Source: Deltaproteobacteria bacterium (GTDB taxonomy: Bacteria; Myxococcota; Kuafuiibacteriia; Kuafuiibacteriales; Kuafuiibacteriaceae). From it: a stretch of DNA of 64,000 nt. The notes beneath the pieces were generated by a model. The model was not told the origin of the DNA and ran no database searches. It saw only the letters and a program-made list of their open reading frames with translations. The stretch lies in contig WYAZ01000099.1 of the NCBI GenBank assembly GCA_011526105.1, positions 2,032-66,031 of the forward strand. Direction: 5' to 3'. Shown piece by piece: positions 12,719 to 41,410 of this stretch. Every line of letters starts with the position of its first letter. Position 1 is the stretch's first letter. Both the position numbers and the translations under genes were made by a program.

Positions 12719-12726
12719 GAGAGTCT

Positions 12727-14047: not shown

Positions 14048-14075
14048 GGTTCGCTCCCCTGGGCTGAAACCGGTC

Positions 14076-14091
14076 GCGAAACACATGCCAG
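14076..14091 (-). promoter_or_regulatory. Putative sigma-54 (-24/-12) promoter of the CBS gene
   Basis: Minus strand reads CTGGCATGTGTTTCGC, i.e. GG-N10-GC, about 30 nt upstream of the ATG. Confidence 0.55.
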
Positions 14092-14194
14092 GCCCCTGGG
14101 TTTATTCGGAACCAGGCCCACGCGCAGGATTGGCCGGGTGGCCCTTCTGCTCGAGCTCAAACCGGCAAAGGTTTCGTGTGATATGACGCCTCGC

Positions 14195-14821: not shown

Positions 14822-14835
14822 TGTCGTTCCTCCCG

Positions 14836-14872
14836 AATGCGAGCTGAAAATGTGAGCCCAAGCTCATATATT
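14836..14872. promoter_or_regulatory. Putative TetR operator overlapping the P450 -10 element
   Basis: Direct repeat AATGCGAGC/AATGTGAGC; inverted repeat ATGTGAGC-CCAA-GCTCATAT; TATATT 6 nt before the P450 ATG. Confidence 0.55.
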
Positions 14873-14878
14873 ACACCC

Positions 14879-16264
14879 ATGACCTCCGTGACCCGCAGCG
14901 AGACGCCCCGGGTCGGCGACCTGCCCACCCCTCCGACCATGCCCGGCTTGCCGGTGGTCGGTTCGCTCCTGGCCTTTAGGAGGAGCCCGATGGCGAGCTT
15001 TGATGCCGCCAAGAAGCTCGGCGACCTCGTTCGCCTTCGGTTCTTTCATCGACGCGGTTTTCTCGTGAGTCATCCCGATCTCGTAAAGCGTGTGCTCGTC
15101 GACGAGCACCGCCGTTTCGGCAAGCAGACACGCGGCTACCAGAACCTCAGGCTCATCGTGGGCAACGGGCTCCTCACCAGCGAGGGCGAGTTCTGGAAGC
15201 GCCAAAGACGCATCGTGCAGCCGGCCTTTCACCATCGGAGCATCGCCAGCTTCGCGGACACGATGACCGCGTCGACCGAGCGCATGCTCGCATCCTGGCG
15301 AAGTCGAGAGCTTGGACGTGTGGAGATGGAACACGAGATGAGCCGACTCACCCTCGAGATCGTGGGCCGGTGTCTCTTCTCCACCGACCTCTCGGACGCT
15401 TCGGACGCGGTCGGCCCCGCCCTCACCACGGTGCTCGGCATGGCGATGGACCGCATCACTCACGTCCTTCAGATCCCGATGAGCATTCCCACCCCCTTCA
15501 ACCGAAAGCTGATGCACGCGGTGGCCGAGCTCGATCGCGTCGTCCTCGGCATCATCGAGGCGCGACGGCGCAGCACAGAGCGGCCGACGGATCTTCTGTC
15601 GATGTTGCTCGAAGCCAAAGACGAGGACACGAACGAGACGATGTCCGATACGCAGCTTCGGGATGAGCTCATGACCCTCGTGCTCGCCGGGCACGAGACC
15701 ACCGCCAACGCGATGGTCTGGACCTTTCATCTGTTGTCGCAGAATCCAGACGTGCGCGATCGATTGCACGAGGAGCTGAAGAACGAACTCGCTGGCCGAA
15801 GCCCCGAGCTCTCCGATCTAAAACGACTCCCGTACACCGACGCCGTCGTGAAGGAGTCGATGCGCCTGTATCCTCCCGCGTGGATGCTCGGTCGCTCGAC
15901 GAGCGAGGACCTCGAGCTGGGTGGGTTCCACGTCCCGAAGAACTCGATGGTCTTCATCTCGATCTATCATCTCCACCGCGACCCGAGGTTCTGGGCCGAG
16001 CCGGAGAGGTTCAGACCAGAGCGTTTTCTGAACGGGGAGTTTGAGTCGGTGCCGAAGCACGCGTACATCCCGTTCAGCGCGGGGCCGCGGGTCTGCATCG
16101 GAAACGCGTTTGCGGAGATGGAAGCGAAGCTGCTCCTCGCCTCGATCTGTCAGCGAGTGAAGCTCGAGGGCGCAGAGGGACACGTGGTCACCCCCGAGCC
16201 CATGATCACGCTTCGGCCCAAGTATGGCCTACCGATGCAGCTCTCTTGGCGAGTCCGCGACTAG
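14879..16264 (+). CDS. Cytochrome P450
   Basis: AGHETTA I-helix, ESMR (ExxR), FRPERF, PFSAGPRVCIG heme ligand; start at ATG 14879. Confidence 0.95.
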   Translation: MTSVTRSETPRVGDLPTPPTMPGLPVVGSLLAFRRSPMASFDAAKKLGDLVRLRFFHRRGFLVSHPDLVKRVLVDEHRRFGKQTRGYQNLRLIVGNGLLTSEGEFWKRQRRIVQPAFHHRSIASFADTMTASTERMLASWRSRELGRVEMEHEMSRLTLEIVGRCLFSTDLSDASDAVGPALTTVLGMAMDRITHVLQIPMSIPTPFNRKLMHAVAELDRVVLGIIEARRRSTERPTDLLSMLLEAKDEDTNETMSDTQLRDELMTLVLAGHETTANAMVWTFHLLSQNPDVRDRLHEELKNELAGRSPELSDLKRLPYTDAVVKESMRLYPPAWMLGRSTSEDLELGGFHVPKNSMVFISIYHLHRDPRFWAEPERFRPERFLNGEFESVPKHAYIPFSAGPRVCIGNAFAEMEAKLLLASICQRVKLEGAEGHVVTPEPMITLRPKYGLPMQLSWRVRD

Positions 16265-16656
16265 GCGTACCAGCCGTTGGCCGCCATGATGCGTGCCTGG
16301 TTGTACGCCATCATGTACGCCACGTTCTGGCGCGCGCACGGGTGCTCGTAAGCCTGGCTGTGACAGCACTGCTGCGAAGCGTCCGCGAGCTGACGATGGC
16401 TCGTCGCGCAGCCGAAGAGCGCACCGAGCGCGCCGAGCGTGGCCCCGGCCGTGAAAGCGAAGGGGTTACAGAGGAACTGCCCCGCGAAACCTTTCAGCAG
16501 GTTGCCGAAAGGCATGCCGCAGAGGCAGCCCTGCATGAGCGAATTGAAGCCTTGAGTGACGGTGCTGAGCGCCTTGCTCGCGAATCCGACGACGGCGTTG
16601 ATGGCTCCACCCACGACACGACGGACGGTGCGAACGATTCTACGGATGAGTCCCAT
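16261..16656 (-). CDS. Hypothetical small protein with cationic amphipathic N-terminus and many Cys
   Basis: GAGGAGG Shine-Dalgarno before the ATG; 131 aa. Confidence 0.7.
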   Translation of the reverse strand: MGLIRRIVRTVRRVVGGAINAVVGFASKALSTVTQGFNSLMQGCLCGMPFGNLLKGFAGQFLCNPFAFTAGATLGALGALFGCATSHRQLADASQQCCHSQAYEHPCARQNVAYMMAYNQARIMAANGWYA

Positions 16657-16758: not shown

Positions 16759-17301
16759 TTATCGGCCGCTCTTGGGCTTGGGTTGCGTGCTTTGTGCTTT
16801 GGCCGCGACTTTTTGGTGTTCGGTGCTGCGTTGCGCCAAAAGCTGCTGCTTGAGCACGCCGCCCGCGGCCGAATCCCCCTTTGCGCCCGGGGGCTTGACC
16901 GGTGGCGCGACATTCGGACCGGCCCGGGTGGTGGCGCCTCCGATGGCCGCGCTCAGCTTCTTCTTGCGGGCTTCGTCTTGGCTCTTCAGCTCGACGGCAT
17001 CGGAAACGACGTCCGCCTGGACCGTGAGATCGATCTCTCCGCTCTCGACCGCCTCGAGCCACGCCTTGACCTCGGCTTCGCTGGGCACCTGGTCACCGAG
17101 GCTCGCGACGCTCTCGTCGTCGAGCACCTGGAGCATGGGCTCCTTTTCGGGGTGCTGAGCAAAGTCGATGATCATCTCCACGTACTCGGCCAGCTCCATG
17201 CCGAGGTTCTTGGCGATCTCTTTGGTCTCCGCGTGGTCCAGGAGTCGCTGCCGTACGACATCCGCCTGGATTCCTAGTGCTTTTCTGGGGCCCTCAGCCA
17301 T
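16759..17301 (-). CDS. Hypothetical protein
   Basis: GGAGG Shine-Dalgarno before ATG 17301; helical acidic N-terminal domain with low-complexity basic tail. Confidence 0.75.
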   Translation of the reverse strand: MAEGPRKALGIQADVVRQRLLDHAETKEIAKNLGMELAEYVEMIIDFAQHPEKEPMLQVLDDESVASLGDQVPSEAEVKAWLEAVESGEIDLTVQADVVSDAVELKSQDEARKKKLSAAIGGATTRAGPNVAPPVKPPGAKGDSAAGGVLKQQLLAQRSTEHQKVAAKAQSTQPKPKSGR

Positions 17302-17516
17302 GCACGCCTCCGTCCGCCCAAAGGCCGGACCAGGCCCGAAGATAGCACAACCTCTGGACACCCGCCTTTTTGCGAGCGGGCGTTCCAGGTGTCTGAGTTT
17401 GCGGGGGAAAAGCTCTGTCATGATGGGGCCGAAGGCGCACGAGTGGGGAGCGCTCGCCTCGGCACCCGACCAGATCGCCGCTGGGTCGGGACCAACGGGC
17501 TCCGTGGGGCTGCTCC

Positions 17517-18947
17517 TCACTCCGAGCAGGCGAGCTGGGTCTCGATGAACATCACCGAACGTCCGGACGGATCATCGTCCTCGAAGTCCGCCACGAGCAG
17601 CGTGCTGGTCCCGGAGAACGGGGCGATGAGGCGAGTGCTCCGCCGATTGCGGGTGGCCACCGAGTCGCAGATACCACGAAGCGGCTGGTAGGCTTCGACC
17701 TGAGCGCGCATCCCGAGGATGAGATTTCCCTCGAACTCGAGCAGCTTGATCATGCGCTCCTTCCCGTAGGCAAGGAAGGTCGTCCACGGACCCTCGATGC
17801 TTGGCGCCCCGAGGATACCGGTCGACTCCATGGAAAGTAGTATCCCGTGCTCCTGGCTGCGCAGACCGCCCAATATGCGCAACGATCCGAGCAACGGAGG
17901 TGCCTCCAAGCTCTCGACCCGAGTCCCGTCGAAGTAGAGAAGCTCGTTCGTGTGCTGAAACGCGGCGGCTCGACCAGGATCGAGCCACAGAACACCTCCG
18001 CTCGAGCGCCGATCGAGCGGATTCGAAGGTCCATCCCCGGCGAGACGACCGAGCTCAGTCCAGCTCTCGCCGTCGAAGCGCAGGAAAGCTCGCTGAGCGG
18101 TGAGCGCAAAGAGTTCGAACGGGACGCCGGGCTCCGAAGGCCCGGTGAGGTGAAAGATGGGGTCCGCGACCGTAGCGACGTCGTCGCGGGAGATGAGACA
18201 CGGGCCAGGGAGATCGAGCGCGCTCTCCTCGATCATGACCACCGACCCATCGCCGAGCGCCACCCAGTGACGACCCGTCGAGTCCGGCCAGCTCGTATTG
18301 GGCGGACGCTCGACCGGGAGCGAACAACCCAAAGCCTGTGTGCCGTCGCTACGAAATAGAACGACGACTCCGCCGGCGGTAAAGCCCGCCAAGCGACCGT
18401 CGGTGAGCGGGTCGACCGAACGGATGAAGGTGGAGGTCTCGAGGTCGGTGAGGCGCGCGGTCAGATCGAGGCACCTCTGATCGCAGCGAAGCATTCGATC
18501 CGGCAGCAGCCCATCGAGCACGGCGAGAAGCCTTGGGTCATCCTCGGTGAGCAGCTCGGGAGCACCATCCTCCTCGAGCCCGACGCGCCAGGCAGAGAGC
18601 GGGACCCCGAGCGCGCAGCTCCGCGTGCAGTCGACACGCACTTCAACCCCTCCAGGGTTGAGGCCGAGCTCGCTGAGGGGTTCGCGATAATAGACTACGA
18701 CGAGCTCGCGAGCGTTCGAGCGCGCGAGTGCCCGAAGTGGAGCCCGAGGGTCGTCGTGGGCGGAGACCTGAAGACCCTCGGGTTCCATGATCGCAACCAC
18801 CGCGCTCTGAGCCTCTTCTGGGGGGGTGAGTGCCTTGACGATCGGGTCCGGGCTCGTGCACGCCACCGCGGTCAGGACGGCGAACACGAGGCCCACGCGG
18901 CTCGAGCGGAGACAACACGGTCGCCATCGGTGCAGACTCGCGCTCAT
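17517..18947 (-). CDS. Hypothetical lipoprotein with beta-propeller-like C-terminal domain
   Basis: VLTAVAC lipobox; RFDGESW and YFDG blade-like motifs; start uncertain. Confidence 0.6.
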   Translation of the reverse strand: MSASLHRWRPCCLRSSRVGLVFAVLTAVACTSPDPIVKALTPPEEAQSAVVAIMEPEGLQVSAHDDPRAPLRALARSNARELVVVYYREPLSELGLNPGGVEVRVDCTRSCALGVPLSAWRVGLEEDGAPELLTEDDPRLLAVLDGLLPDRMLRCDQRCLDLTARLTDLETSTFIRSVDPLTDGRLAGFTAGGVVVLFRSDGTQALGCSLPVERPPNTSWPDSTGRHWVALGDGSVVMIEESALDLPGPCLISRDDVATVADPIFHLTGPSEPGVPFELFALTAQRAFLRFDGESWTELGRLAGDGPSNPLDRRSSGGVLWLDPGRAAAFQHTNELLYFDGTRVESLEAPPLLGSLRILGGLRSQEHGILLSMESTGILGAPSIEGPWTTFLAYGKERMIKLLEFEGNLILGMRAQVEAYQPLRGICDSVATRNRRSTRLIAPFSGTSTLLVADFEDDDPSGRSVMFIETQLACSE

Positions 18948-19021
18948 GGAGCATCCGGCCGACACGCGATCCGAGCATCGCAGGCCGAGGACCCGAACAC
19001 CAGCCCAGCTCCACCGAGTCG

Positions 19022-19267
19022 TCAGCGGTTCGAGACGTGCCGAGTCCAGTCCGCGTGCGCTCGGCCGCCGTTGCCAGCGGCGTAGGCGTCCGTCGCCTGA
19101 CGGATCTGCCTCTCGGCTCGCTGCTGAAAGGCGGCGTCCGACTCCCCCTGCAGCCGATACACGGCGTTGCTCTGGCCCCCGATCGAGCCCTCGTAGGGCT
19201 TGACGGAGTAGCTGATGGAATCCGAGGTGTCGTAGCGGGGACGGTTGTCGACTGAATAGCTTCCCAT
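19022..19267 (-). CDS. Small hypothetical protein (81 aa)
   Basis: AAGGAG Shine-Dalgarno before the ATG; fills an intergenic gap. Confidence 0.6.
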   Translation of the reverse strand: MGSYSVDNRPRYDTSDSISYSVKPYEGSIGGQSNAVYRLQGESDAAFQQRAERQIRQATDAYAAGNGGRAHADWTRHVSNR

Positions 19268-19339
19268 GTGGGCTCCTTCTGATGCGCGAAGTGGGTTCAC
19301 CCAAACGAGCGGGTTGTGGGGGCAGAGAGCGCCCCGTGT

Positions 19340-19912
19340 TCAAAAACGAAATACCAGCGGTGCCGATGCGGCGGCACACGGCCTCGAGTCCGCGAAGGCG
19401 GCCATCGCAAGGGGCGTCACGAACAGCGCAGAGAGGGCCCAGAGCCCCACCGAGATGGGCAAAAACGCCGGCTCATCCGTCGCCTCGCGCAAGCCCATGC
19501 CGCCCGCGAAGAGCAGCCCGCCGGCCAGGACGCCCATGCCCGCGGCGGCACCCCACGCGTCGCTCGGCGGGTCGAGAGCGAGCGTGGAGCCCAGCGCGGA
19601 GCCAAACAGCAAGCCGCCAAGACCGACCGCCGCCGTGCCGTACCAGGCAGCCTCGCAACCACCCGGACCAACGCCTGCGTTACAGAAGACCAAAGGCAGG
19701 AGCAGACCGAGGAGCACACCGCCAGCCGCGCCGATGGGCGCTCCTATGAGCGCGCCCCCCAAGGTCTGACGATACGTGTCACCGAAGCTCTGCGACTCGG
19801 GCTCGCCGCACTGCGCGGACGCGAGCGAAGGTGTCGCGAGGGCTGCGATGAGAACGAGTGAGGTAGAACGACGCAAGGCTACGGGACCGAGTCGATTGGC
19901 TTCGCTGCGCAT
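19340..19912 (-). CDS. Hypothetical exported, Gly-rich membrane protein
   Basis: Signal peptide ending ASA; several glycine-zipper-like hydrophobic helices; C-terminal FRF. Confidence 0.6.
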   Translation of the reverse strand: MRSEANRLGPVALRRSTSLVLIAALATPSLASAQCGEPESQSFGDTYRQTLGGALIGAPIGAAGGVLLGLLLPLVFCNAGVGPGGCEAAWYGTAAVGLGGLLFGSALGSTLALDPPSDAWGAAAGMGVLAGGLLFAGGMGLREATDEPAFLPISVGLWALSALFVTPLAMAAFADSRPCAAASAPLVFRF

Positions 19913-19954
19913 CGTCGTTCCTCTCTTCCGTGTGTCGTCCAACGCGGTCCGAGC

Positions 19955-20312: not shown

Positions 20313-21194
20313 TTAAGTCGCACCGCTATCGGGCAGCGCTTGAAACCAGGTGCGCTTGCCGGCCGCCGCATCGGTACGCATCAGCTCGAGTGCTTCTCGC
20401 GCTGCCGCTGCATCGGGCCCCTTTAGAGAGTCCCAGTTGGCTTTGTACCAAGCCTCCACGTGGTCGGTCCAAAGCCCCGTCGGATCATCTCTGAGACGCG
20501 CGGACATTTTGTTGTTGAGAGGGAGGACCATCATCGTCAGCTGAGAGGGGTCGCTTGGGTGGGGTTGGGCGAAGTCTTTGAAGCCAGCCTTTTCATAGTG
20601 CGCACGCATGTCTGGGTCGACCTCGACCCAGAGCGCCCCCGCGTGATGCCGCGTCGCCATCTGCTTCATGAGACAGAGGCCCGCGGTGATGTCCTTGGAC
20701 TCCTGTCCCTTGCGCGGCATCTCGATCGCACTCAGGTAGTCGATCTGGAAGCCGGTCGGTCCGAGGTGCCATCCGGACGCGACGCCGAAGGGCTCGCTGG
20801 CGCCCCTATCTGATGCGGTCCTTATCTCGTATCGAGAGCTGCTGGCATACGCGACCTCCGCGCCGAGCGTCTCGGTGTGCACGCCCTTGTAGAGCTTCTG
20901 CAGTAGACCGTGAGCCACGGCGATCTCCGCCTCCGTCTTCAACGCGGGCGAGATCTGCACACCCACTTGGGCAATCAGCTTGTTGGCGGCGGCGACGGTG
21001 GACGGGACGCGACCGGCCGCGCTGGCTAGGCCCAGATCGGGAATGTGCCCCGCCGGCCCGCCGGCTCGGTCTAGAGCCACGCTCGAACGGTTCTGCAGGG
21101 TTGTCTGTTCAGACCCGACCGCCCTGGCTCGAACCGTCTCGAGAGCAACGGGAGGGAGGTGCCTATTTTCAGGTGCCTGGGCGACTCGACTCAT
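20313..21194 (-). CDS. GNAT-fold protein with disordered N-terminus
   Basis: GAGGAG Shine-Dalgarno; FQIDYLSA..RKGQ..AGLCLMKQ..LWVEVD..AHYEKAGF follows GNAT strand 4/motif A/motif B order. Confidence 0.55.
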   Translation of the reverse strand: MSRVAQAPENRHLPPVALETVRARAVGSEQTTLQNRSSVALDRAGGPAGHIPDLGLASAAGRVPSTVAAANKLIAQVGVQISPALKTEAEIAVAHGLLQKLYKGVHTETLGAEVAYASSSRYEIRTASDRGASEPFGVASGWHLGPTGFQIDYLSAIEMPRKGQESKDITAGLCLMKQMATRHHAGALWVEVDPDMRAHYEKAGFKDFAQPHPSDPSQLTMMVLPLNNKMSARLRDDPTGLWTDHVEAWYKANWDSLKGPDAAAAREALELMRTDAAAGKRTWFQALPDSGAT

Positions 21195-21421
21195 CTTGAA
21201 CTCCTCGGTGGGTTCCCACGGAGCAGTGAGAACTCATTCGGCCGAGCAACCAGCAAGCGCCATGCCGGCCTCAAAACGCGCTCGAGCACCCTCTTTTCGA
21301 CGCGGTGTGCCGCGCCGATCGGGTCCTGCGAGCGCCACTTCCGGATGTCGGAGGCTCCCGACCCAACTGAAACCGCGTGGCGCGGCGGCAGCTCATTTTG
21401 GGACCTCGGTCCGCTCTTGCA

Positions 21422-21844
21422 TCAGAAGTCGAGGAACGTCGTGTCCACCCCGAGCGCGTGATAGAGCGGACAATAGCCAGAGGCCGCGGTGGCCGCAGGC
21501 AGGACCGAAACGCCCATCAGGACCGCGTTTGCGGCATCACTGAAGTTGTTCGAGGCAAGACCATACACGGCGAGCCCAACGAGGGTGGCCGCGGCCACCC
21601 CCCGAAACACCCGCTCACCATCGCCGATGTTACGGGGTAGGCCGAAGACCGTGGTCTCGAGCTGAGTGACGGAGGTCTCGCTCGAACTCCCGAACACCAA
21701 TGCCGGCACGCGCGGCGCCAGGAATCCGGAAGAGAGCTGAAGGTTCAAGCCGTCCCCATCGGCTCGCGCAGCGAGTGGAGTCGCGGTGAGCATTCCTCCG
21801 AGCAGGAGCGCGGCAGCGAGGCGGACCGTGTTGTGCGTGTTCAT
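21422..21844 (-). CDS. DUF2892/YgaP-like membrane protein with N-terminal signal peptide
   Basis: RNIGDGERVFR...SGYCPLYHALGVDT; GAAAGG Shine-Dalgarno. Confidence 0.75.
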   Translation of the reverse strand: MNTHNTVRLAAALLLGGMLTATPLAARADGDGLNLQLSSGFLAPRVPALVFGSSSETSVTQLETTVFGLPRNIGDGERVFRGVAAATLVGLAVYGLASNNFSDAANAVLMGVSVLPAATAASGYCPLYHALGVDTTFLDF

Positions 21845-21965
21845 GATTCGTGTCCCTTTCCTGCGAAGGAGATGCGACAGAGAGGAGAAAGGATTCACCG
21901 CGAGGATGAGCACGCGCAACGGGGCTCGGACGCCGAGCGAGAGCCATGGTATGCAGGCGATCTCG

Positions 21966-22454
21966 ATGGCGCCGAGGATTCCCGATCCCAAACACTGGGG
22001 CCTGACCTTCGCGCTCGGCCTCCTCGCGGCGTGTGGCGCCGACTCGCGCCCCCTGACGGCCGACGCGAATGCCGTTGAATCCGACGGGGGTCTGACGGAG
22101 GACGCTGAGCTGATCGCGCCTGACGAAACGCCCGACCTAGGCGCGGCGGAGGTGTCGGACAACGATGCGGGTGCGAGTCGCGAGGAAGATGGTGGGGGTG
22201 ATACCGACGTCGAACGGGACGCTGGTTCGAGCGAGGACCTCGACCCCGTGCTGTTCGTCCACGGAATCAACGGTTCCAGCGCCGACTTCGCGGTGATGCT
22301 CCAACGTCTCGTCGATGATGGCTGGCCGGCCGACCACCTCTGGGCCATCACGTTTCCCGATCTGAACACCCCGCGGCGTACCAGGAGCTCCTTCGAGTCC
22401 TGTCCTATCCCAACCCCTGAGGAGAGGTGTTCGCTCCCATGCGGCGGAGGGTGA
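21966..22454 (+). pseudogene. Truncated lipase/alpha-beta hydrolase lipoprotein
   Basis: LLAAC lipobox, DA-rich linker, DPVLFVHGING lipase N-terminus; the ORF then degenerates and stops with no GxSxG nucleophile. Confidence 0.6.
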
Positions 22455-22521
22455 GCCGCGCTCTGGGATGATCGGCCTCGCGTTCCGCCGATAGAACAGG
22501 AAGCTCTGGATCTCGACTCAT
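22405..22521 (-). CDS. 38-aa Arg-rich peptide, candidate RiPP precursor
   Basis: MSRDPELPVLSAEREADHPRARLTLRRMGANTSPQGLG; purine-rich GAAAGGG upstream; shared 25-nt upstream motif; co-oriented downstream of the arginase. Confidence 0.35.
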   Translation of the reverse strand: MSRDPELPVLSAEREADHPRARLTLRRMGANTSPQGLG

Positions 22522-22665
22522 CGGAAGCTCGCCCTTTCGATGAGCTGGTGGTTTAGGCGTTTGAGTTTGCGGGGGAAAAGGCCCGAATTCGCGGGGAAGA
22601 AGGCCGCGGCGCACCGGGGTCGGGATCTGGGGCTGAAGACGGACGAACGTGGGCCTCGCACCGAC

Positions 22666-23871
22666 TCAGGCCTTCGCTTCGAGCCGTTCGGCGAGACCAC
22701 GCACGATGCCGTCCATCACCGACAGCACCACCTCGACCGCTACGCTCGAGGTCCCATCCGCGGGACCGAGCTCGGGACCGACCTCGACCACATCACACCC
22801 GATGATGTCGCGCTTCCTCGCGAGCTCGTGCGCCAGATCCTTGAGCTCGTGCGGAAAGAGCCCCCCGACCACCGGAGTGCCGGTGGAGGGCGCAAACGCG
22901 GGATCAACCACGTCGATGTCGATGCTCACGTAGTATGGGAGGTCTTCGGGGAGCGTCTCGAGGATCGCGCCGAGCCCATCCCGGCGGACTTGGTCCATGC
23001 CAAAGGCGTGGACGCGTTCGTCCTGGGTGTGGGCGCTGCCTTCGACGATTCCACGTAAACCGATCTGGACCAGTCGCTCCACGTACTCGAGCTTGTCGAG
23101 CACCACGCTGAAGACGTTGCCGTGATGGAGCTTGTCGACCCTGCTGTCGCCCAGATCTGTGTGGGCGTCGAAGTGGATGATGCCAAAACGCTCTGCGGGA
23201 AGCGCCCTCACCACCGCGTAGGTCACGGAGTGATCCCCGCCGATGACGATGGGAATGGAGCCACAGTCGACGAGCTCACCCACGACCTCGGACACCCGCG
23301 CGAAGGCGAGCTCCGGCGCCTCGCCCATCGGGAGACTGACATCTCCGGCGTCGGCCAGGGTCACGCCTTCGAGCACCGTCCGGCCGCGCGCGTGGTCATG
23401 GATGCCCATCGGCGTCAGCTTCTTGGGATCGAGCTGATAGTGCGCCGCCTCACCGCTGTTGCGAACCGCCACCGGCCCGAAGCGAGCACCGGCCCGGCCA
23501 GAGGTGTTGCGATCGAAGGGCACCCCGAGGAAGACAAAGGCGGGTGGAGCGGCGGGGTCGAAGCAAGGCGCACCGAACATCGTGGGACGGACCGGGACCC
23601 GGTTCGGGCGCAGGCCCTCGCCGTTCGGTCCGGCCGGAAGCAGCGCGAATGCGGCGACCGCGGCCTCGAGGAACTGCGAGGTGGCGGAGCGATCATACGG
23701 GAAGCGCTCGAGCATCGCGCTCGGGCTGGTCGGCGTCACGAACTGCTGCAGCAGGTTGAGTTGATACCGCGTCACACGAAGGCTCGAGGCCAGGCCGCTC
23801 ATGCGGAGCTCGAAGCCCTCGCCGTGCTCGACGATCTCGAGGCTCTCGTTCAGGACGTAGCGCTCCGCCAC
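22666..23871 (-). CDS. Arginase/agmatinase-family ureohydrolase with N-terminal wHTH (RRE-like) extension
   Basis: GVPFD, GARFGP, GGDHS, HFDAHTD, SIDIDVVDP, TGTPVVGG; ~85-aa N-terminal extension of three strands then three helices. Confidence 0.85.
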   Translation of the reverse strand: MAERYVLNESLEIVEHGEGFELRMSGLASSLRVTRYQLNLLQQFVTPTSPSAMLERFPYDRSATSQFLEAAVAAFALLPAGPNGEGLRPNRVPVRPTMFGAPCFDPAAPPAFVFLGVPFDRNTSGRAGARFGPVAVRNSGEAAHYQLDPKKLTPMGIHDHARGRTVLEGVTLADAGDVSLPMGEAPELAFARVSEVVGELVDCGSIPIVIGGDHSVTYAVVRALPAERFGIIHFDAHTDLGDSRVDKLHHGNVFSVVLDKLEYVERLVQIGLRGIVEGSAHTQDERVHAFGMDQVRRDGLGAILETLPEDLPYYVSIDIDVVDPAFAPSTGTPVVGGLFPHELKDLAHELARKRDIIGCDVVEVGPELGPADGTSSVAVEVVLSVMDGIVRGLAERLEAKA

Positions 23872-23902
23872 GCAGGCAGCCTAGCGCGCCTCGAAGTCGA
23901 GG

Positions 23903-24895
23903 TCACGACGGAGCACCGGCGAAAAGCTTGGCCAGCGCCTCATCCAGCGTGAACTGAGGTGCATAGCCCAGGTCGCGACGGGCGGCGTCGATGCGAAACC
24001 AGTGCGAGGTGGCGAGCTGGGCGGCGACGAAGCGGGTCATCTTCGGCTCGGCTTCGAGCCCCAAAGTCCGGTGCACGCCTTCGAGCACCGCGCCCGCAAA
24101 GGAGGCCACCCGATGCGACACCTGTCGCTGCACCTTCGGCGCCCCAGCACCTTCGAGCAGACGATCGATGAACGCCCAGAGCAACACCGGCTCCGGCTCA
24201 TTGATGAAGTACGCACGACCACCAGCGGGCGATTCTGCATCGGCGAGCGCGTCGAGCGCGCAAAGATGTGCGTGCGCGGCGTTCTCCACATAGGTGACAC
24301 TCACTTGGTTCGTGCCATCACCCACGCGCGCGAGTTGGCCGCGCTTGGCTCGCTCGACCAGCCGCGGCAACAAGTGCGGATCGCCGGGGCCAAAGACCAG
24401 ATGCGGGCGCAGCGCCACGGTGTGCAGCCGCCCGGGCTCGTGCGCGCCGAGGACCAGCCGTTCGGCCGCAGCCTTCGTCTCGGGGTACGCGGTCAAGTAG
24501 CGCTCGGGATAAGCGAGGCTCTCGTCGCCGGCTTCGATGGGCTCGTCGCCATACACGACGCTCGGTGTGCTCGTGTAGACCAGCCGGCGAACTGAGTGCG
24601 TCTTGCAGGCCGCGAGGATGTTCTCGGTCGCGACGAGGTTCGCGCGCCGATAGTCTTCGTGCGGCCCCCAGACCCCGGCCTTTGCCGCCACGTGAATGAC
24701 CGCCTCCATGCCAAGGACCGCTCGCGCCGCGATCTCGGGCTCGGCGAGATCACCCTGCACCGAAGTGGCGCCGAGCGCCTCGACCTCCGGATAGTGGCCG
24801 CGCGCCGCGATGCGGACTTGGTCCCCGCGGAGAAGAAGCCGCTCTGCGATGTGACGGCCGAGAAAACCGCCGCCGCCGGTGACGAGGACCTGCAT
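23903..24895 (-). CDS. oleD: 2-alkyl-3-oxoalkanoate reductase-like extended SDR (3-beta-HSD family)
   Basis: TGGGGFLG, HVAAKAGVWG, TSTPSVV, YPETK, LRPHLVFGPGD; oleABC lie 6.5 kb away. Confidence 0.85.
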   Translation of the reverse strand: MQVLVTGGGGFLGRHIAERLLLRGDQVRIAARGHYPEVEALGATSVQGDLAEPEIAARAVLGMEAVIHVAAKAGVWGPHEDYRRANLVATENILAACKTHSVRRLVYTSTPSVVYGDEPIEAGDESLAYPERYLTAYPETKAAAERLVLGAHEPGRLHTVALRPHLVFGPGDPHLLPRLVERAKRGQLARVGDGTNQVSVTYVENAAHAHLCALDALADAESPAGGRAYFINEPEPVLLWAFIDRLLEGAGAPKVQRQVSHRVASFAGAVLEGVHRTLGLEAEPKMTRFVAAQLATSHWFRIDAARRDLGYAPQFTLDEALAKLFAGAPS

Positions 24896-24953
24896 GCCGG
24901 GCGGAACGCTGCCAGGATTCCGAGCCTCAGCGCAAGCTCAGCCCGGCCTTTCG

Positions 24954-26714
24954 CTATTCCGCCGAGATCGGACGGGCTCCGCCCCCAACCCCGAGCTCTC
25001 CGTCGATGGGCGCAGCCTTGTAGCGAGGCACCTTCTGGATCAGCGAGAACCAGTTTCCGGTCATCGCGGCGTAGGTGATGCGCGCGGAGAACATGGAACC
25101 CGCGAAGCCGGCCGAGAACGGATCCTGACCCGTCAGATACAGACCCTTGATCTTGGTCTTGGGCCTCAGCCAGTGGGTGTGCTTCACGAATCGATCGCCG
25201 CTCGGTTCGAGCCCCAAAGAGCACGACTCCCACGCGCGTGGGTTGCAGCCCATCGGAACACCCGCGCGCCTGACCACCGGCGTCTTCCCCTCGAGCTGCG
25301 GCATGTGACGAAGCGCGATGCGCTCGAGGTTCTTGGCGATGTCCGCTTCGAGCTTCGCCTTGAACTCCGGGTCGGCCCAAGACTTCTGTGCCCAGGCATA
25401 AGGCGCCTCCGCCAACACAATCACCGTAGACTTTCCTGGGTAGCGTTCGCGATACACCGGATCGCGGGCGGAGGGGCTGAGCAGGTAGCCCCCCATCCCC
25501 TCGAGCCGCATGTTCCGCTTGTACTCGAGATCCGCGTTGTCGAGATCATAGGGTGCCACATCCGGATACTCGGGCATCTGCCAGAAGATCTGCTTCGGCA
25601 GCTCGATCTCCTCGTCGTAGCCGAGGAAGAGATACAGATGCGCCGGGCTCGGACGGATGTCATCGAACTTCTGGGCGTAGCCGTGTCGAACCGCGATCTC
25701 CCGATCGATGAGCTCCATGAAGGTCGTGTGCGCCGAGGCGTCGCTGATCACGAGCGGGCAACGGATCTCTTCTCCGCTCTCGAGCCTCACCCCTTGTACC
25801 CGGTTCCTCTCGATGAGGATCTGCTCCACCGCGCAGTTGACGGCGAGCTGGCCGCCCGCACGCTCGACGATCGGAACGACACACTCGGCGATCTGACCGG
25901 GCCCACCGACCGGGTAGTACGCACCGTCTCGATAGTGCATGAGGTTCGCCGCGTGAAACGAGAACGGAGCGTTCACCGGCGTTCGACCGTGATTGCCGTA
26001 CATGTAAGAGAAGACCGAAGCGAGCTTGGGCGAGAACCCGAGCTCGTTTTGAAAGACCTCGAGCACGGTACGGCCCATGTACTTGCGCCAGTCGCCGCCG
26101 AGCACGCGATAGAAGAGCTCGCGCAGCGCTTCCGGGACCCAGCCGGGGATCAGCTTGGTCACCGCCCAGGCCCACGCCCACCACTGGATGCTCTCCTCGA
26201 GGCGATAGTACTCGCGGATGTTGCCTTGACCCGGGAACCGACGCTCGACCCACTCGATGTTCTTCTCGGGCGAAGAGAACCACTCGTACACGTCCTCCCC
26301 GAAGGTGCAGACCTCGTGCACGTCCGGCATCTTCGCCCACTCGAGCGTGCCCTGCGTGATGAAGTCGATCGTCGGCCTAAACACGCCTCGGCCCACCCGT
26401 GGGTCCATGTCACCGATCGAGTCGATGCCGCTGTTCCACTCGAAGCCGTCGAGCTCGTGACAGTGTGTACACCCGCCGGGAATGGTGTTGGCCTCGAGCA
26501 GCAGCACGCGCATCTTCTTCTTCTGAGCGAGGATCGAAGCGATGCTCAGCCCGCCGATACCCGAACCGATGACAATGGCGTCCGGGTTCTGGAGCAGCTT
26601 GTGCGGCTTCTTGTACTTCTTGGTGGAGAGGTTGCGCTCACCGAGAAAGCGCGGACCCAGGTGCGGTCGCCCGGGGCTCCAGAATAGTTGGTTCGTCTCG
26701 TTCGGGTTGTTCAT
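24954..26714 (-). CDS. CrtI/retinol-saturase-like FAD oxidoreductase
   Basis: IGSGIGG dinucleotide-binding motif, YPVGG, C-terminal GLYLTGQD. Confidence 0.85.
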   Translation of the reverse strand: MNNPNETNQLFWSPGRPHLGPRFLGERNLSTKKYKKPHKLLQNPDAIVIGSGIGGLSIASILAQKKKMRVLLLEANTIPGGCTHCHELDGFEWNSGIDSIGDMDPRVGRGVFRPTIDFITQGTLEWAKMPDVHEVCTFGEDVYEWFSSPEKNIEWVERRFPGQGNIREYYRLEESIQWWAWAWAVTKLIPGWVPEALRELFYRVLGGDWRKYMGRTVLEVFQNELGFSPKLASVFSYMYGNHGRTPVNAPFSFHAANLMHYRDGAYYPVGGPGQIAECVVPIVERAGGQLAVNCAVEQILIERNRVQGVRLESGEEIRCPLVISDASAHTTFMELIDREIAVRHGYAQKFDDIRPSPAHLYLFLGYDEEIELPKQIFWQMPEYPDVAPYDLDNADLEYKRNMRLEGMGGYLLSPSARDPVYRERYPGKSTVIVLAEAPYAWAQKSWADPEFKAKLEADIAKNLERIALRHMPQLEGKTPVVRRAGVPMGCNPRAWESCSLGLEPSGDRFVKHTHWLRPKTKIKGLYLTGQDPFSAGFAGSMFSARITYAAMTGNWFSLIQKVPRYKAAPIDGELGVGGGARPISAE

Positions 26715-26731
26715 GGGGTCGCGTACCGTGC

Positions 26732-27997
26732 TCAGCCCGCGCGGGGCTGCGAAAGGATGGGGAGGGCCTCGGAACCGAGCGCGGGCCGAGGGCACGCGGT
26801 CAGGAAGCAGCCGTAGCGGAGCTTCTCGTCCAGCCGACAAGACCAGACAAGCTCGCCCTTGTGGATGGTCATGTCCGGGCAGCCATCACACATGTTCGTC
26901 TCTCCGCCCTTTCCGAAGTCGATGGGCTGGATGATGAGCAGCGTCTGATAGTGCACGCGCTCGAACAGGTCCTTGGGTGAACTCAGGGTCCGCTTCAGGA
27001 ACGACCGGGCGGCTCTGCGCGTGCCCGAGTCGACGAGAGAGAAGCCGGCCATGATCGAGCGGCCCCGCTCGAGCAGCTCGGGCGCGACATAGGCCAGGTA
27101 GCGCCGCGCGAAGATGTGGTGTGCAGTCTGAACCAGCTCCATGTACCGAGGGCCGATGTAGCCAAAGGTCTTGCGCTTGCTCGCGAGACGACCGCTGAGC
27201 AACCACTTGAGGCTATCCGGGTCTTTTGTCCCGCCAAGGTAGGCCGCCGGCTGAAACTCCGGCTCCACCTTGCGGATCTCGTTGATGACGTCCGCCGCCC
27301 GAAGGGGCTCCGGGTTGCGCTCCTGGTCGTAGTAGACCAGCTCCTTGCCATCGATCTTCTTGCCGTGGGCGAAGTAGTCGAACTCCGCGCTCCGCATGGT
27401 GCGAAAGAGGATGAAGACCATGTTGTGAACGATGTCGATGTGCTCCCTGGCCCACTCCACGAGCGCCGGAACGTACTTCAGGGTGTGTGGAAAGACCGTG
27501 GAATTGAAGGCCACCGTCAGCCCTCCAACCTCCTCGACCATTTCTGCATAGTGGAGACGGAGCTCGTTGAGCTCGATCTCGTTCTTGTCCTTCCATCCCG
27601 GGCGGCCCTGACTCGAATCGATGTGAAAGGTAAAGCCGTGGACCCCCGCAGCCTTGAGCCGACGGAGCAGTTCTGGGGTGAGCGCGAGCCCGTTGGTGTT
27701 GAGGACCGGCTTGAGGTTGAACTCGTGCCGGATCATCCGAACGATCGCCTCGATCTCCGGATGCACCAGCGGGTCACCACCGGCCACGGAGATGCTGTCG
27801 ACCGTGCGCTGCCTGACGAAGTCCTCGAGGTCTTCGCGGACCTGCTCCAGCGTCTTGTCGCTCTTTGGGTCGTTCGTGGAGTAGCAGCCCTCGCAGTACA
27901 GATTGCAGCGTTTTGTGGGCTCGAGCCAGCTCAGCACATTGTCGTTGAGCGACCACGGCAGACGATAAAGGTCGGTGGGGCGGACCTCGGTGTTCAT
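26732..27997 (-). CDS. Radical SAM protein with C-terminal auxiliary Cys motif
   Basis: CNLYCEGC (CxxxCxxC), GGDP, NTNG; C-terminal CDGC...SC...GC...AC. Confidence 0.9.
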   Translation of the reverse strand: MNTEVRPTDLYRLPWSLNDNVLSWLEPTKRCNLYCEGCYSTNDPKSDKTLEQVREDLEDFVRQRTVDSISVAGGDPLVHPEIEAIVRMIRHEFNLKPVLNTNGLALTPELLRRLKAAGVHGFTFHIDSSQGRPGWKDKNEIELNELRLHYAEMVEEVGGLTVAFNSTVFPHTLKYVPALVEWAREHIDIVHNMVFILFRTMRSAEFDYFAHGKKIDGKELVYYDQERNPEPLRAADVINEIRKVEPEFQPAAYLGGTKDPDSLKWLLSGRLASKRKTFGYIGPRYMELVQTAHHIFARRYLAYVAPELLERGRSIMAGFSLVDSGTRRAARSFLKRTLSSPKDLFERVHYQTLLIIQPIDFGKGGETNMCDGCPDMTIHKGELVWSCRLDEKLRYGCFLTACPRPALGSEALPILSQPRAG

Positions 27998-28227
27998 GCG
28001 CGGCAGAAATCTTCGCGAGCACACTTGCAGTCAACAAGAAGGTGAGCTTGAGACATTGACGCTCGTGTCTCGGATGCGGAGCTTGCGGTGCGGCAAGAAA
28101 AAGCTTGCGCTGCAGCAAGGCGGGCATTGTCGCGATCGCGGGCCTCGCTTTTTGTTGATCGATCACGTGCCGCGCTCTATGACGCCGACCATTCCACGTT
28201 TCCAGAATCGCGAGGTACGCAGTGGGC

Positions 28228-29823
28228 ATGAAGAACGAACAGTACGAAGCAATCGTCGTCGGCGGCGGAGTCGGCGGTCTATCGACTGCGCTCTCCCTGT
28301 CACGCAACGGACACAAGGTCCTTCTGCTGGAGAAGAATGAAAGCCCAGGCGGCAACTGCTCCTCGCGCAAGATGGACGAGTACACCTTCGATCTCGCGGT
28401 GCATCAGCTCACTGGAGTGGAAGGCGACGGCCAGTGCGGCGTCGTCCTCAAGGACCTCGGAATCCGCCACAAGTTGGACTTCGCGCGAGTCGACCCTTTC
28501 CTCGTGCTCGACATGCCCGACCGCAGCTACACACTCCCCGGCTCCTGGGATGGAGTGCGCAGCTCGCTCGTGAAGGCCTTCCCCAAGGAAGAGGCGTCGA
28601 TCGACCGCTTCCTCGCGAAGATGAGGGCCATCAAGCAGGACGCCATGATGGCGCAGCGGATTCTGTACGGCGCCAACAGCGTCGTCGACGAGCTCCTCAA
28701 CAAGGACGTCCCGCTCTCCCGGTGGCTCAGCTTCCCGCAGGGCATGCTCTCCATGCTCGCGGAGGGCGAGCTGACCGCCGAGAAGTTCTTCCGACGCTAC
28801 ATCAAGGACGACAAGCTGATGTCGGTGGTCTGTGGCGCCTGGCCTTATCTGGGTGTCCCTCCCAGTCAGCTGTCGGGGATGATGATGGCCTTTCTCTTTG
28901 GTGGGCAGCACATGGAGAAGACCTTCTATCCCATCGGTAGCTCGCAACGGATCGCGGACGTCTTCGTCGAGTCCATCGAGGAACACGGCGGAACGGTGCG
29001 GCTTGGCGCCGAGGTAAAGCGAATCCTCGTGAAGGATGGGCGCGCCTACGGGGTCGAGCTCGCCAACGGGGAGCAGATCCACTGCCGCTTCGTGGTGTGC
29101 AACGCCCCCGCAGCCTACGCGTATCGGGAGCTCATCGACCCCAAGGAGGTGCCGAAGCGTCTTCTGCGCAAGCTGGGCAAGATGGAGAAGAGCGTTGGCC
29201 CCTTCAAGGTCTACTTGGGACTCGACTATGACGTCTCGAAGCACGGCCTCGACCACCACGAGTACCTCATCTACGACAGCTACGATCACGAGGAGAACTA
29301 CCGGCGGATGCAAGAAGGCTATCCGTCCTCTCTGAGCGCGTACTCCCCCACCAAGGCCGACCCAAGCTTGGCGCCCGAGGGACACAGCACGCTGATCTTG
29401 ACCACCATGTTCCCGTGGCAGACCAAGCGGGACTGGCGGAATCACGTAGACGAGATCGCGGAGGAGATGATCACCAAGATGGAGAAGCGGCTCCCGGACA
29501 TCCGGCAGCACATCAAGACCAAGCGCACTCTGACCCCCGAGAAGCTCAAGGCCTACACAAACACGACCGACGGCTCGATGTACGGCTGGGCGAACTCGGT
29601 GAGTCAGGTCCTGATCAAGCGCCTCTCCAACCGGTCGCCGATTCGAGACCTGTATCTGGTGGGTCACTGGACGCAGCCAGGCACCGGGGTCACGACCTGC
29701 ATCATCTCCGGATGGATGATCGGCAATCTCCTGCAGAAGACCTACGGGAACGTTCCCTCCATGCACAGCATCCTCCGCACCGCGCAGGATGCGTTGCACA
29801 GCGGGTTCCGAGGGCTGCAGTGA
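28228..29823 (+). CDS. CrtI/phytoene-desaturase-like FAD oxidoreductase
   Basis: VGGGVGG, YPIGS, GSMYGW, LYLVGHWTQPGTGV. Confidence 0.85.
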   Translation: MKNEQYEAIVVGGGVGGLSTALSLSRNGHKVLLLEKNESPGGNCSSRKMDEYTFDLAVHQLTGVEGDGQCGVVLKDLGIRHKLDFARVDPFLVLDMPDRSYTLPGSWDGVRSSLVKAFPKEEASIDRFLAKMRAIKQDAMMAQRILYGANSVVDELLNKDVPLSRWLSFPQGMLSMLAEGELTAEKFFRRYIKDDKLMSVVCGAWPYLGVPPSQLSGMMMAFLFGGQHMEKTFYPIGSSQRIADVFVESIEEHGGTVRLGAEVKRILVKDGRAYGVELANGEQIHCRFVVCNAPAAYAYRELIDPKEVPKRLLRKLGKMEKSVGPFKVYLGLDYDVSKHGLDHHEYLIYDSYDHEENYRRMQEGYPSSLSAYSPTKADPSLAPEGHSTLILTTMFPWQTKRDWRNHVDEIAEEMITKMEKRLPDIRQHIKTKRTLTPEKLKAYTNTTDGSMYGWANSVSQVLIKRLSNRSPIRDLYLVGHWTQPGTGVTTCIISGWMIGNLLQKTYGNVPSMHSILRTAQDALHSGFRGLQ

Positions 29824-31412
29824 GCGAGTCGCTCGCTCGCTCTGGACTCTACGCATCGATCAAGCAAAGCACGCCCGGCGCGGACTGGGACTGCATCGTC
29901 ATCGGCTCAGGCATCGGCGGCATGGCCTGCGGGGCCGCGCTCGCCAAACACGGCCAGAGGGTCCTTCTCCTCGAGCAACACTACGTCCCTGGGGGCATGA
30001 CCCACACCTTCACGCGCCACGGCTTCCGCTGGGACGTGGGGGTGCATTGTCTGGGCGAACAGGGGCCAAAGGACGTCTCGGGTAAGCTGCTCCACTGGCT
30101 CACCGACGGACAGATCCGGATGAACCGGCTCCCAGAGGTCTACGAACGCTTCTGGTTCCCGGGGCGGCAGTACACGTACTCGAGCAACATCGAGAACCAC
30201 CAGGCGACCCTCATCCGCGCCTTCCCAAAGGAGGAGGCCGCCATCCGAAAGTACTTCCGATTGGTCCGATGGGTCTTCAACATGGCACGCCCGTTCTACG
30301 TGTTGAAGGCGGCGCCGCTGCCCGTGAATCGCGTCGCGAACGCCGCGATGGGCGGGCTCTGGAAGAGGTACTGGCAACGAACAACGAAGGAAGTGCTCGA
30401 CGAGCTATTCTCGGACGACAAGCTCAAGGCCGTGCTCGTGGCGCAGTGGGGCTACTACGGGAGCCCGCCGAGCCGATCGAGCTTTGGCATGCACGCGATG
30501 GTGGCCCGGCACTTCTTCGATGGGGCCTTCTATCCGGTGGGCGGGTCCGAGGCCTTTGCCAAGTATCTGCTCGCGACCATCAACGAGGCCGGCGGTCGGA
30601 CTTATGTCCGTGCGTCCGTGGACGAAATCCTCGTGGAGCACGGCAGCGCGGTCGGGGTGCGGCTCTCCGGCGGAGAGTGCATCCGGGCCAAGCGGGTGGT
30701 CTCGGCGGTGGGGGCCAAGAACACCATCAACCGCCTGCTGCCAGAGGCCCATCGCTCGAGCTCTTGGGCGCGGAGCCTCAACGGCCTGAGCTCATCACCC
30801 GCCTACCTGTGTTTGAACCTGGGCTTCGAGGGTGACATCCGAAAGGCGGGGGCCAGCGAGACGAACAACTGGCTGATGCAGTCGTGGGACGTCGAGGACT
30901 CGCACTGGAACTTCTCGGACCCGAAGGCCGTGCCTCCCATCGCCTATCTGTCCTTTCCCTCACTCAAGGATCCCGAGCTCAAAGAGCAGTGTCACGAGCG
31001 GAGCACCGGCGAGGCCCTGGCGTTTGTGCACTGGGAAGAGTTCGCGGCGTGGGCCGATACCCGGCGCGGGCACCGCGGCGCGGACTATGAAGCCCTCAAG
31101 CAAGAGCTCGCGGACCGCTTCGTTGCGCATCTCCGAGATCAGCTCCCAGACATCATGAAGCACCTCGTCTACTACGAGATGTCGACCCCGGTGTCCACGC
31201 ACTTCTTCACGCGCTCATGGGAGGGTGGGATCTATAGCTTCGAGACCACCCCCGAGCGATTTGCGAATACGGACCTCAGTGCCCACACGCCGATCAAGAA
31301 CCTCTACCTCACGGGTTCGGATGTCATCTCACCCGGGGTCGCAGGCGCGTTGGTCGCGGGTGTTCTCACCGCGGCGGCGATCGATCCACGCGTCGCGCTC
31401 AAGCTCGCCTGA
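29820..31412 (+). CDS. CrtI/retinol-saturase-like FAD oxidoreductase
   Basis: IGSGIGG, EQHYVPGG.THTF..WDVGVH, YPVGG, STPVS, LYLTGSD; GTGA overlap with the previous gene. Confidence 0.85.
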   Translation: MSESLARSGLYASIKQSTPGADWDCIVIGSGIGGMACGAALAKHGQRVLLLEQHYVPGGMTHTFTRHGFRWDVGVHCLGEQGPKDVSGKLLHWLTDGQIRMNRLPEVYERFWFPGRQYTYSSNIENHQATLIRAFPKEEAAIRKYFRLVRWVFNMARPFYVLKAAPLPVNRVANAAMGGLWKRYWQRTTKEVLDELFSDDKLKAVLVAQWGYYGSPPSRSSFGMHAMVARHFFDGAFYPVGGSEAFAKYLLATINEAGGRTYVRASVDEILVEHGSAVGVRLSGGECIRAKRVVSAVGAKNTINRLLPEAHRSSSWARSLNGLSSSPAYLCLNLGFEGDIRKAGASETNNWLMQSWDVEDSHWNFSDPKAVPPIAYLSFPSLKDPELKEQCHERSTGEALAFVHWEEFAAWADTRRGHRGADYEALKQELADRFVAHLRDQLPDIMKHLVYYEMSTPVSTHFFTRSWEGGIYSFETTPERFANTDLSAHTPIKNLYLTGSDVISPGVAGALVAGVLTAAAIDPRVALKLA

Positions 31413-31420
31413 CGCGAGAT

Positions 31421-35947: not shown

Positions 35948-35950
35948 CGT

Positions 35951-41406: not shown

Positions 41407-41410
41407 GGCC

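Follow-up and report, generated by a model that had tools for sequence, protein, structure and literature searches.

An arginase-family protein with an RRE-like N-terminal fold and two companion genes in a Myxococcota genome

Locus and gene model

The window analysed here is a stretch of 64,000 nucleotides (nt) with 65% GC from contig WYAZ01000099.1 (positions 2,032 to 66,031) of a Deltaproteobacteria bacterium of the phylum Myxococcota (assembly GCA_011526105.1). Its minus strand encodes an arginase-family protein of 401 amino acids (aa), here called P0001, in which a ureohydrolase domain (PF00491) is preceded by a domain modelled with the fold of a recognition element (RRE) of ribosomally synthesised, post-translationally modified peptides (RiPPs). 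Two further genes, designated X and Y, accompany the arginase gene in related loci, and we tentatively propose that the enzyme acts on a guanidino group carried by a peptide or protein, possibly the product of one of these two genes. The features on which this proposal draws are as follows, with the sources of each assignment in brackets.

22666..23871, minus strand: gene for P0001, RRE-fold domain plus PF00491 ureohydrolase, 401 aa (open reading frame (ORF) list, translation, Pfam, codon-position GC)
23632..23871, minus strand: N-terminal domain, residues 1-80, beta-beta-beta-alpha-alpha-alpha(-beta) winged helix of predicted RRE/PqqD-type fold (models, Foldseek)
23539..23631, minus strand: linker, residues 81-111, modelled as ordered; P89 and P102 are conserved (AlphaFold2, alignment)
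22669..23538, minus strand: catalytic ureohydrolase domain, agmatinase-like, residues 112-401 (Pfam, NCBIfam, PDB sequence matches, Foldseek)
23227..23241, minus strand: GGDHS motif, residues 211-215, with metal ligand H214 (invariant in 73 of 73 aligned proteins)
23155..23169, minus strand: DAHTD motif, residues 235-239, with metal ligands D235, H237 and D239 (invariant in 73 of 73)
22900..22926, minus strand: SIDIDVVDP motif, residues 316-324, with metal ligands D318 and D320 (invariant in 73 of 73)
16759..17301, minus strand: gene X, about 180 aa if translation starts at M74 of the 253-aa ORF at 16759-17520 (BLAST, alignment A3, hidden Markov model (HMM))
16261..16656, minus strand: gene Y, 131 aa, with an N-terminal arginine-rich amphipathic helix MGLIRRIVRTVRR and a Gly/Ala-rich hydrophobic middle (BLAST, alignment A4, HMM)

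An earlier reading of this stretch, made from the letters and their ORFs (the sequence-only reading), had placed a candidate peptide arginase at 22666-23871. These coordinates are right and the ORF list puts the gene on the minus strand, where all the peptide stretches quoted in that reading occur in the translation; frame 1 of the plus strand across the same interval is interrupted by an internal stop. The gene starts with GTG and its stop codon occupies 22666-22668, and because an in-frame TAG lies 12 nt 5' of the GTG, the N-terminus cannot extend any further. GC contents of 0.73, 0.44 and 0.83 at the three codon positions are of the coding type for a window of this composition.

Catalytic domain

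The PF00491 model matches residues 112-385 (E 1e-67; 229 bits against a cut-off of 22), and the complete ureohydrolase metal-binding set described in the sequence-only reading is present in the form of the GGDHS, DAHTD and SIDIDVVDP motifs. All six metal ligands (H214, D235, H237, D239, D318 and D320), together with H250 and E363, are invariant across the 73 proteins of the family alignment (A1, described below), and the active-site residues thus predict a catalytically intact binuclear-metal ureohydrolase.

By sequence, the catalytic domain appears nearest to agmatinases and guanidino-acid hydrolases. Among proteins of solved structure, the closest relatives in the PDB sequence search are Deinococcus agmatinase (1wog, E 1.4e-33), guanidinobutyrase (3nio) and guanidinopropionase (3nip, both at E ~1e-32), with Escherichia coli SpeB and proclavaminate amidinohydrolase also among the best, and a Foldseek search with the whole model retrieves the same agmatinase-type set (1wog at E 1.3e-24). 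P0001 has in common with these enzymes (SpeB, GbuA, GpuA; 1wog, 3nio, 3nip, 7lba) both the catalytic fold and the metal motifs GGDHS, DAHxD and SxDxDxxDP, whereas their chains of about 300-330 aa align with residues 95-396 of P0001 only, and in P0001 the loop at residues 142-165, which is conserved, is somewhat longer. Against NCBIfam, the agmatinase model TIGR01230 scores 158.5 bits, just short of its cut-off of 174.3, and PRK02190 scores 171.3 bits against a cut-off of 302; P0001 falls below every NCBIfam equivalog cut-off and is therefore not placed among the SpeB equivalogs.

The set of best matches and the narrow miss to TIGR01230 both favour a role for P0001 as a small-molecule guanidino hydrolase of arginine or polyamine metabolism, with agmatine, one of the guanidino acids or a metabolite related to them as substrate; the N-terminal domain would then serve oligomer assembly or regulation, and X and Y would be unrelated neighbours or regulators. 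The failure to reach any equivalog cut-off argues in the other direction. With the evidence of the following sections included, we regard such a metabolic role as a substantial possibility, if not a probable one.

N-terminal domain

When a 5.8-billion-protein collection was searched, 1732 of the 8000 candidates scored reached E <= 0.001, and 80 of the best 85 of these cover at least 90% of P0001, with lengths of about 400-450 aa. Alignment A1 was built from the full-coverage rows plus four distant ones (73 sequences in all), leaving out fragments and rows of low coverage. The N-terminal residues L40, L41, F44, P58, F67, L77 and P89 are each conserved in at least 90% of the aligned sequences, and mean pairwise identity is 0.33 over residues 5-80 vs 0.49 over residues 112-386. 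Alignment thus indicates that the N-terminal extension is a real and conserved part of the protein and no product of an over-extended ORF. The family is small and mostly metagenomic, and includes a distant homologue in Streptomyces (P0097).

The full-length AlphaFold2 model, computed on A1, has a mean predicted local distance difference test (pLDDT) value of 94.8 and a predicted template modelling score of 0.92. DSSP assigns to the modelled N-terminal domain strands at residues 5-7, 11-16, 19-24, 29-33 and 77-80 and helices at 35-45, 50-56 and 61-73; the linker is likewise confidently modelled (pLDDT 93-96), the first catalytic strand begins at residue 112, and the N-terminal domain is packed rigidly onto the catalytic domain. 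When residues 1-95 are modelled alone (alignment A2), the secondary structure is unchanged at a pLDDT of 89.4. The pattern of three strands and three helices that had been read from the first ~85 residues, and likened to winged helix-turn-helix domains of the PqqD type, is therefore present in both models, which contain the three-stranded sheet and three helices of the winged-helix RRE fold.

Foldseek was run with the isolated N-terminal domain against the PDB, and the values that follow are for matches among those listed, of which seven reach E <= 0.001. The best is TigE (8vpo; E 2.2e-4; TM-score normalised by query, TMq, 0.75), described as a RiPP radical-SAM maturase (PMC10878394). MccB, with a TMq of 0.63-0.68, follows at E 6e-4 and weaker, the RRE of PbtF on its own (8t19) matches with a TMq of 0.67 and a target-normalised TM-score (TMt) of 0.73, and LynD, TruD, TbiB1 and lasso-peptide B1 match with TMq 0.47-0.56; ThcOx, McbBCD, MadB and BmdC, an oxidase associated with non-ribosomal peptide synthetases, are also found. 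Nearly all of the matches listed are thus RiPP enzymes described as RRE carriers, not generic DNA-binding winged helices, and this dominance of the RRE-type fold argues against a small-molecule hydrolase. We take the matched part of each of these proteins to be its RRE, as the PDB titles confirm for 8t19, 5v1u and 6jx3.

Sequence searches with the same domain stay mostly within the family. In Pfam at E <= 10, the first 110 aa yield a chance match to DUF7867 at 0.4 only. A profile of four N-terminal domain sequences (A6) run against 1.84 billion representatives gave 15 matches, nine of which are full-length members of the arginase family and three contig-end fragments of that family. The remaining three, proteins of 5418, 2229 and 1701 aa, match in many short stretches, probably through repeats or composition, and were left out of account. 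Because Foldseek finds RRE carriers but sequence searches see no relation to them, the domain is, as modelled, RRE-like in its fold yet specific to the family in its sequence, and it is seen only as a fusion with this arginase family. In other words, the beta3-alpha3 winged helix is predicted to be shared with the RRE/PqqD-like domains of RiPP enzymes (MccB, LynD/TruD, TigE, lasso B1, PbtF), whereas there is no detectable sequence similarity to them, and the partner here is a ureohydrolase with no RiPP cluster around it.

Companion genes X and Y

A scan of genome contigs yielded 80 loci kept among the matches listed, at least three of which belong to the arginase family. These are L001 and L003, from Myxococcota metagenome-assembled genomes (MAGs), and L002, from a Pseudomonadota MAG, with E-values of 4e-100 to 2e-118; the two named relatives closest in context are the Myxococcota MAGs. 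At the other 77 loci listed, the matches are no stronger than E 3e-37 and the genes are of the ordinary agmatinase type.

In an all-against-all BLAST comparison of ORFs of at least 60 aa between the 64-kb window and the three related loci, the only genes in common are the arginase, X and Y; the remaining BLAST lines are antisense shadows of the arginase. X has homologues at L001:11146-11676, L002:11209-11919 and L003:11181-11726 (E 1e-17 to 1e-26), and Y matches at E 1e-19 in L003 and 1e-9 in L002. Both genes lie directly downstream of the arginase in all three related loci, and in L001 the X ORF overlaps the arginase stop by 4 nt while Y is convergent. HMMs built for X, Y and the N-terminal domain match all four family loci and none of the 77 ordinary agmatinase loci (81 sources); since the models were built from these same four positive loci, only the absence from the 77 is informative. 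No other ORF of at least 30 aa is conserved near the arginase across the loci. This linkage to two small, non-enzymatic proteins, and not to speA or transport genes, argues against a metabolic agmatinase.

Database searches recovered eight relatives of X and nine of Y. Several protein clusters have equal 'longest contig' values, namely 19016 and 25802 for arginase, X and Y clusters, 9429 for arginase and X, and 11257, 4053 and 1321 for X and Y, which suggests that the clusters sharing a value are co-located. Neither X nor Y has a usable family match in Pfam (E <= 1), PADLOC, the ESM Atlas or PDB sequence profiles.

The first ~100 residues of X are acidic (net charge -7 to -18) and are followed by a basic, low-complexity tail. 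A conserved VLKQQLLAQR-like motif (alignment A3) is located near the C-terminus outside L002. In the L002 homologue (11209-11919, plus strand) the acidic tail is longer, and a SHOCT domain (E 1e-7) lies at the C-terminus.

The N-terminal helix of Y has a hydrophobic moment of 0.71-0.99 and a net charge of +8 to +16, and all 13 aligned sequences (A4) keep M1, R5, I7, R9, R13 and K28 without exception, although the Y of the window is only 25-38% identical to its homologues in the three related genome loci. Within the clade of the window's Y, which includes P0130-P0138, the protein contains some eight cysteines and its last residues are GWYC or GWYA, and no such cysteines occur in L001-L003; these residues suggest a clade-specific disulfide or metal chemistry.

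Genomic context

In the window the arginase gene ends a minus-strand run of OleA-, OleB-, OleC- and OleD-like, CrtI-family and radical SAM genes. The interval 23903-42811, mostly on the minus strand, holds an unusually rich ole-type lipid cluster, which also includes a FabI-like gene and FabG. The main members of the cluster are listed here.

34071-35570: OleA-like, part of the minus-strand run
33157-34077: OleB-like, part of the minus-strand run
31421-33322: OleC-like, below the equivalog cut-off, part of the minus-strand run
23903-24895, minus strand: OleD-like, below the equivalog cut-off
24954-26840 (minus), 28222-29823 (plus), 29415-31412 (plus), 39410-40930 (minus) and 41411-42811 (minus): five CrtI-family FAD oxidoreductases
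26732-28024, minus strand: radical SAM enzyme, weakly like the tetraether synthase Tes (62.8 bits), two genes upstream of the arginase

As the sequence-only reading had noted, 31 nt separate the OleD-like gene, whose ORF ends at 23903, from the start of the arginase gene at 23871 on the same strand, and from this spacing co-transcription with the lipid cluster is possible. A scan of 21300-25000 found no promoter-like sites and two terminator-like sites, vs 1.6 expected by chance, neither of them in the gap between the two genes. The short gap on one strand, the lack of a terminator-like site within it and the OleA- to OleD-like, five CrtI-family and radical SAM genes upstream could together be taken to mean that P0001 belongs to the ole-type lipid or hydrocarbon cluster as a tailoring enzyme, co-transcribed with oleD and removing a guanidino group from a lipid-linked intermediate. 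However, ole, CrtI and radical SAM genes are absent from all three related loci, whose Pfam contents differ from one another, so that the co-occurrence with oleABCD is not conserved and the adjacency is found in the window only; moreover, we know of no guanidino group in ole chemistry. We therefore consider a lipid-tailoring role highly improbable, and the position of the arginase gene after oleD looks incidental to its function.

The related loci also bear on a metabolic role. The L001 arginase gene lies near genes for argininosuccinate lyase, dapA and dapB, which would suit a hydrolase of arginine or polyamine metabolism, whereas such a context is seen in only one of the three loci.

Four ORFs, all on the minus strand, separate the arginase from X and Y in the window.

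21422-22369, minus strand: ORF with a match to the YgaP-like transmembrane end
20313-21194, minus strand: ORF
19340-19942, minus strand: ORF
17517-19379, minus strand: ORF

Apart from the YgaP-like match of the first, these ORFs have no family match, and their GC differs less between codon positions than it does in their neighbours; they may be an insertion that splits the trio of arginase, X and Y, or in part no genes at all.

Two other ORFs in the window have uncertain starts. The 1005-aa ORF at 13247-16264 (plus strand) matches cytochrome P450 over residues ~555-999 only, and GC at the third codon position (GC3) is 0.69 in its 5' half vs 0.82-0.84 in the opposite-strand ORFs 13130-14086 and 14195-14821, so this ORF probably runs too long and the actual P450 gene is probably shorter. 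The 1019-aa SecA-like ORF at 9785-12844 (minus strand) is matched by SecA models in two stretches, beginning ~150 residues in and below the cut-offs (579.6 bits vs 862 for NF006630), and it represents either a divergent SecA or an over-extended start.

Comparison with described peptide arginases

Two enzyme types have been described that form ornithine in ribosomal peptides, the OspR-type arginases of pfam12640 and KgrD of PF00491 (PMC10028609, PMC12703449). OspR-type enzymes carry the motifs EEH(N/H)EAF, DXHXD and LDIDLDYFSC, and the metal ligands of OspR are His12, Asp39, His41, Asp43, Asp165 and Asp167 (PMC10028609, PMC12703449); in OhkR the ligands begin at His15 (PMC12703449). OspR dimerises through an inserted internal domain, Ser170-Ser234 (PMC10028609). 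In the case of biphenomycin, the RRE is carried by a protein of its own, PbsD, and the arginase of the pathway, PbsE, is rich in tetratricopeptide repeats with ligands from His10 (PMC12257519).

The sequence-only reading had called P0001 a candidate peptide arginase and had taken it as established that enzymes of the OspR type carry an N-terminal RRE. The second statement does not agree with the published descriptions, in which these enzymes belong to pfam12640, have other motifs and begin their catalytic core at His12, and the term RRE does not occur in the text of PMC10028609 or PMC12703449, as far as the portions available of these papers go. Part of the first stands, inasmuch as the N-terminal domain is modelled with the RRE/PqqD-type winged-helix fold, but P0001 is not an arginase of the OspR kind. 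In Pfam, PF00491 is its only match at E <= 1, and PF12640 gives weak matches in eight of the 73 relatives (best E 0.048). GGDHS and SIDIDVVDP stand in place of the OspR motifs, which are absent. P0001 is colinear with 1wog over residues 96-383 and has no insert of ~60 residues comparable to the OspR dimerisation domain, and the OspR structure 8BRP is neither among the best 60 of 72 PDB sequence matches nor among the Foldseek matches listed. Since P0001 is a PF00491 protein with conventional motifs, it is therefore no relative of OspR. What it has in common with the OspR type (OspR 8BRP, FlmR, OhkR, PbsE) is the arginase alpha-beta-alpha fold and a binuclear metal site, with peptide chemistry only proposed in the present case; the differences lie in Pfam family, motifs, a core that starts from residue 12 and an internal dimerisation insert, as described in the available text, vs the N-terminal RRE-fold domain found here.

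The RRE-type fold of the N-terminal domain, and the radical SAM gene two genes upstream, which loosely recalls the pairing of a radical SAM enzyme with KgrD in the enteropeptin pathway as described, could be used to argue for a classical RiPP peptide arginase of the OspR kind whose substrate would be a short leader-core precursor encoded nearby. This reading already fails on family membership, motifs and structural matches, and the radical SAM enzyme, weakly Tes-like as it is, is not conserved with the arginase. Nor is there a precursor among conserved nearby ORFs of at least 30 aa, other than X and Y. We hold it to be very unlikely. Two short minus-strand ORFs just downstream of the arginase, at 22405-22614 and 22518-22700, were considered as precursors and rejected, the first for a GC3 of 0.54 and the second for its overlap with the end of the gene; no ORF of at least 30 aa in L001-L003 matches either of them at E <= 1e-3.

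KgrD, from the enteropeptin pathway, is a PF00491 arginase that acts on peptide-bound arginine (PMC12703449, PMC10028609), and it requires a thiomorpholine made earlier in the pathway (PMC12703449). KgrD acts on a peptide, and the PF00491 family is therefore capable of such chemistry, a precedent, as far as it is described, that we count in favour of a peptide or protein substrate for P0001. The two proteins belong to the same Pfam family and are likened here by description. They differ in that KgrD depends on the prior thiomorpholine and the P0001 enzyme has no such conserved partner, and the pairing with a radical SAM enzyme and a precursor peptide is not reproduced in this family, the radical SAM gene being present in the window and absent from L001-L003. 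In the literature searched by full text we found no description of a fusion between a ureohydrolase and an RRE or PqqD domain, and the words 'arginase' and 'ornithine' do not occur in the review PMC13361665. The combination of an RRE-fold domain, a PF00491 ureohydrolase and the X-Y pair differs from both of the described types of peptide arginase.

Proposed function

We tentatively favour the reading that P0001 is an RRE-guided ureohydrolase acting on a guanidino group borne by a peptide or protein, possibly in Y or X, although we would put this at somewhat below an even chance. The N-terminal fold, the integrity of the active site, the family-wide fusion and the linkage to X and Y are observed; peptide binding, the identity of the substrate and chemistry on a peptide are what we infer from them. 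In the mechanism we envisage, the RRE-fold domain would take hold of a partner peptide or protein, most likely Y or X, by an extended segment, so that a peptidyl arginine of the bound partner would be brought to the metal centre, where the guanidino group would be hydrolysed with release of urea, leaving ornithine. Y is the first candidate substrate because its arginines are strictly conserved, and X is a candidate adaptor or substrate because its gene is coupled to the arginase gene. A more specific version, in which the three genes form one system, the arginase converts R5, R9 and R13 of Y into ornithines and the acidic X serves as a chaperone or adaptor, is speculative and, in our view, rather unlikely. 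A predicted complex of the arginase with two Mn ions and Y scored 0.00 against a mark of 0.32; the fold of Y itself is uncertain in this prediction, which is evidence neither way.

Several observations weigh against the action of P0001 on a peptide or protein. Firstly, the E-values of the fold matches to the N-terminal domain are modest, and no sequence method finds a match to PqqD or to a solved RRE: Pfam PqqD is not matched at E <= 1 by any of the 73 family members, and a profile of 20 N-terminal domain sequences (A5), run against PDB sequences at E <= 10, gave seven matches, all to de novo beta-trefoil designs, which we take as chance. Secondly, the closest solved relatives of the catalytic domain are 1wog, 3nio and 3nip, and the miss to TIGR01230 is a near one. 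Thirdly, the gene context covers four loci only (the window and L001-L003), X and Y adjoin each other in the window but are separated from the arginase, upstream of them, by ~5 kb and four ORFs, and near the arginase the loci share no conserved protease, transporter or further RiPP maturase. Finally, Y is 131 aa long and bears its conserved arginines N-terminally, unlike the layout of N-terminal leader and C-terminal core of the RiPP precursors in the available portions of PMC10028609 and PMC12703449. The absence of RiPP-type neighbours and of a PqqD signal at the sequence level also counts in favour of a small-molecule hydrolase. Support for an RRE-guided enzyme currently rests on the fold match and on synteny in four loci.

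Implications

In the available portions of PMC10028609 and PMC12703449, a recognition domain of its own is described neither for the OspR-type arginases nor for KgrD. A ureohydrolase with a built-in RRE-fold domain would thus be a new way of directing ornithine-forming chemistry, and the conserved, arginine-rich partner Y offers a concrete candidate substrate. Should P0001 be a metabolic agmatinase instead, its family would be a case of an RRE-type fold that serves something other than peptide recognition, and a caution for genome mining based on RREs. If the three-gene reading were true, arginase, X and Y would represent a third and architecturally new class of peptide or protein arginase, and a modification of arginine to ornithine outside a classical natural-product cluster.

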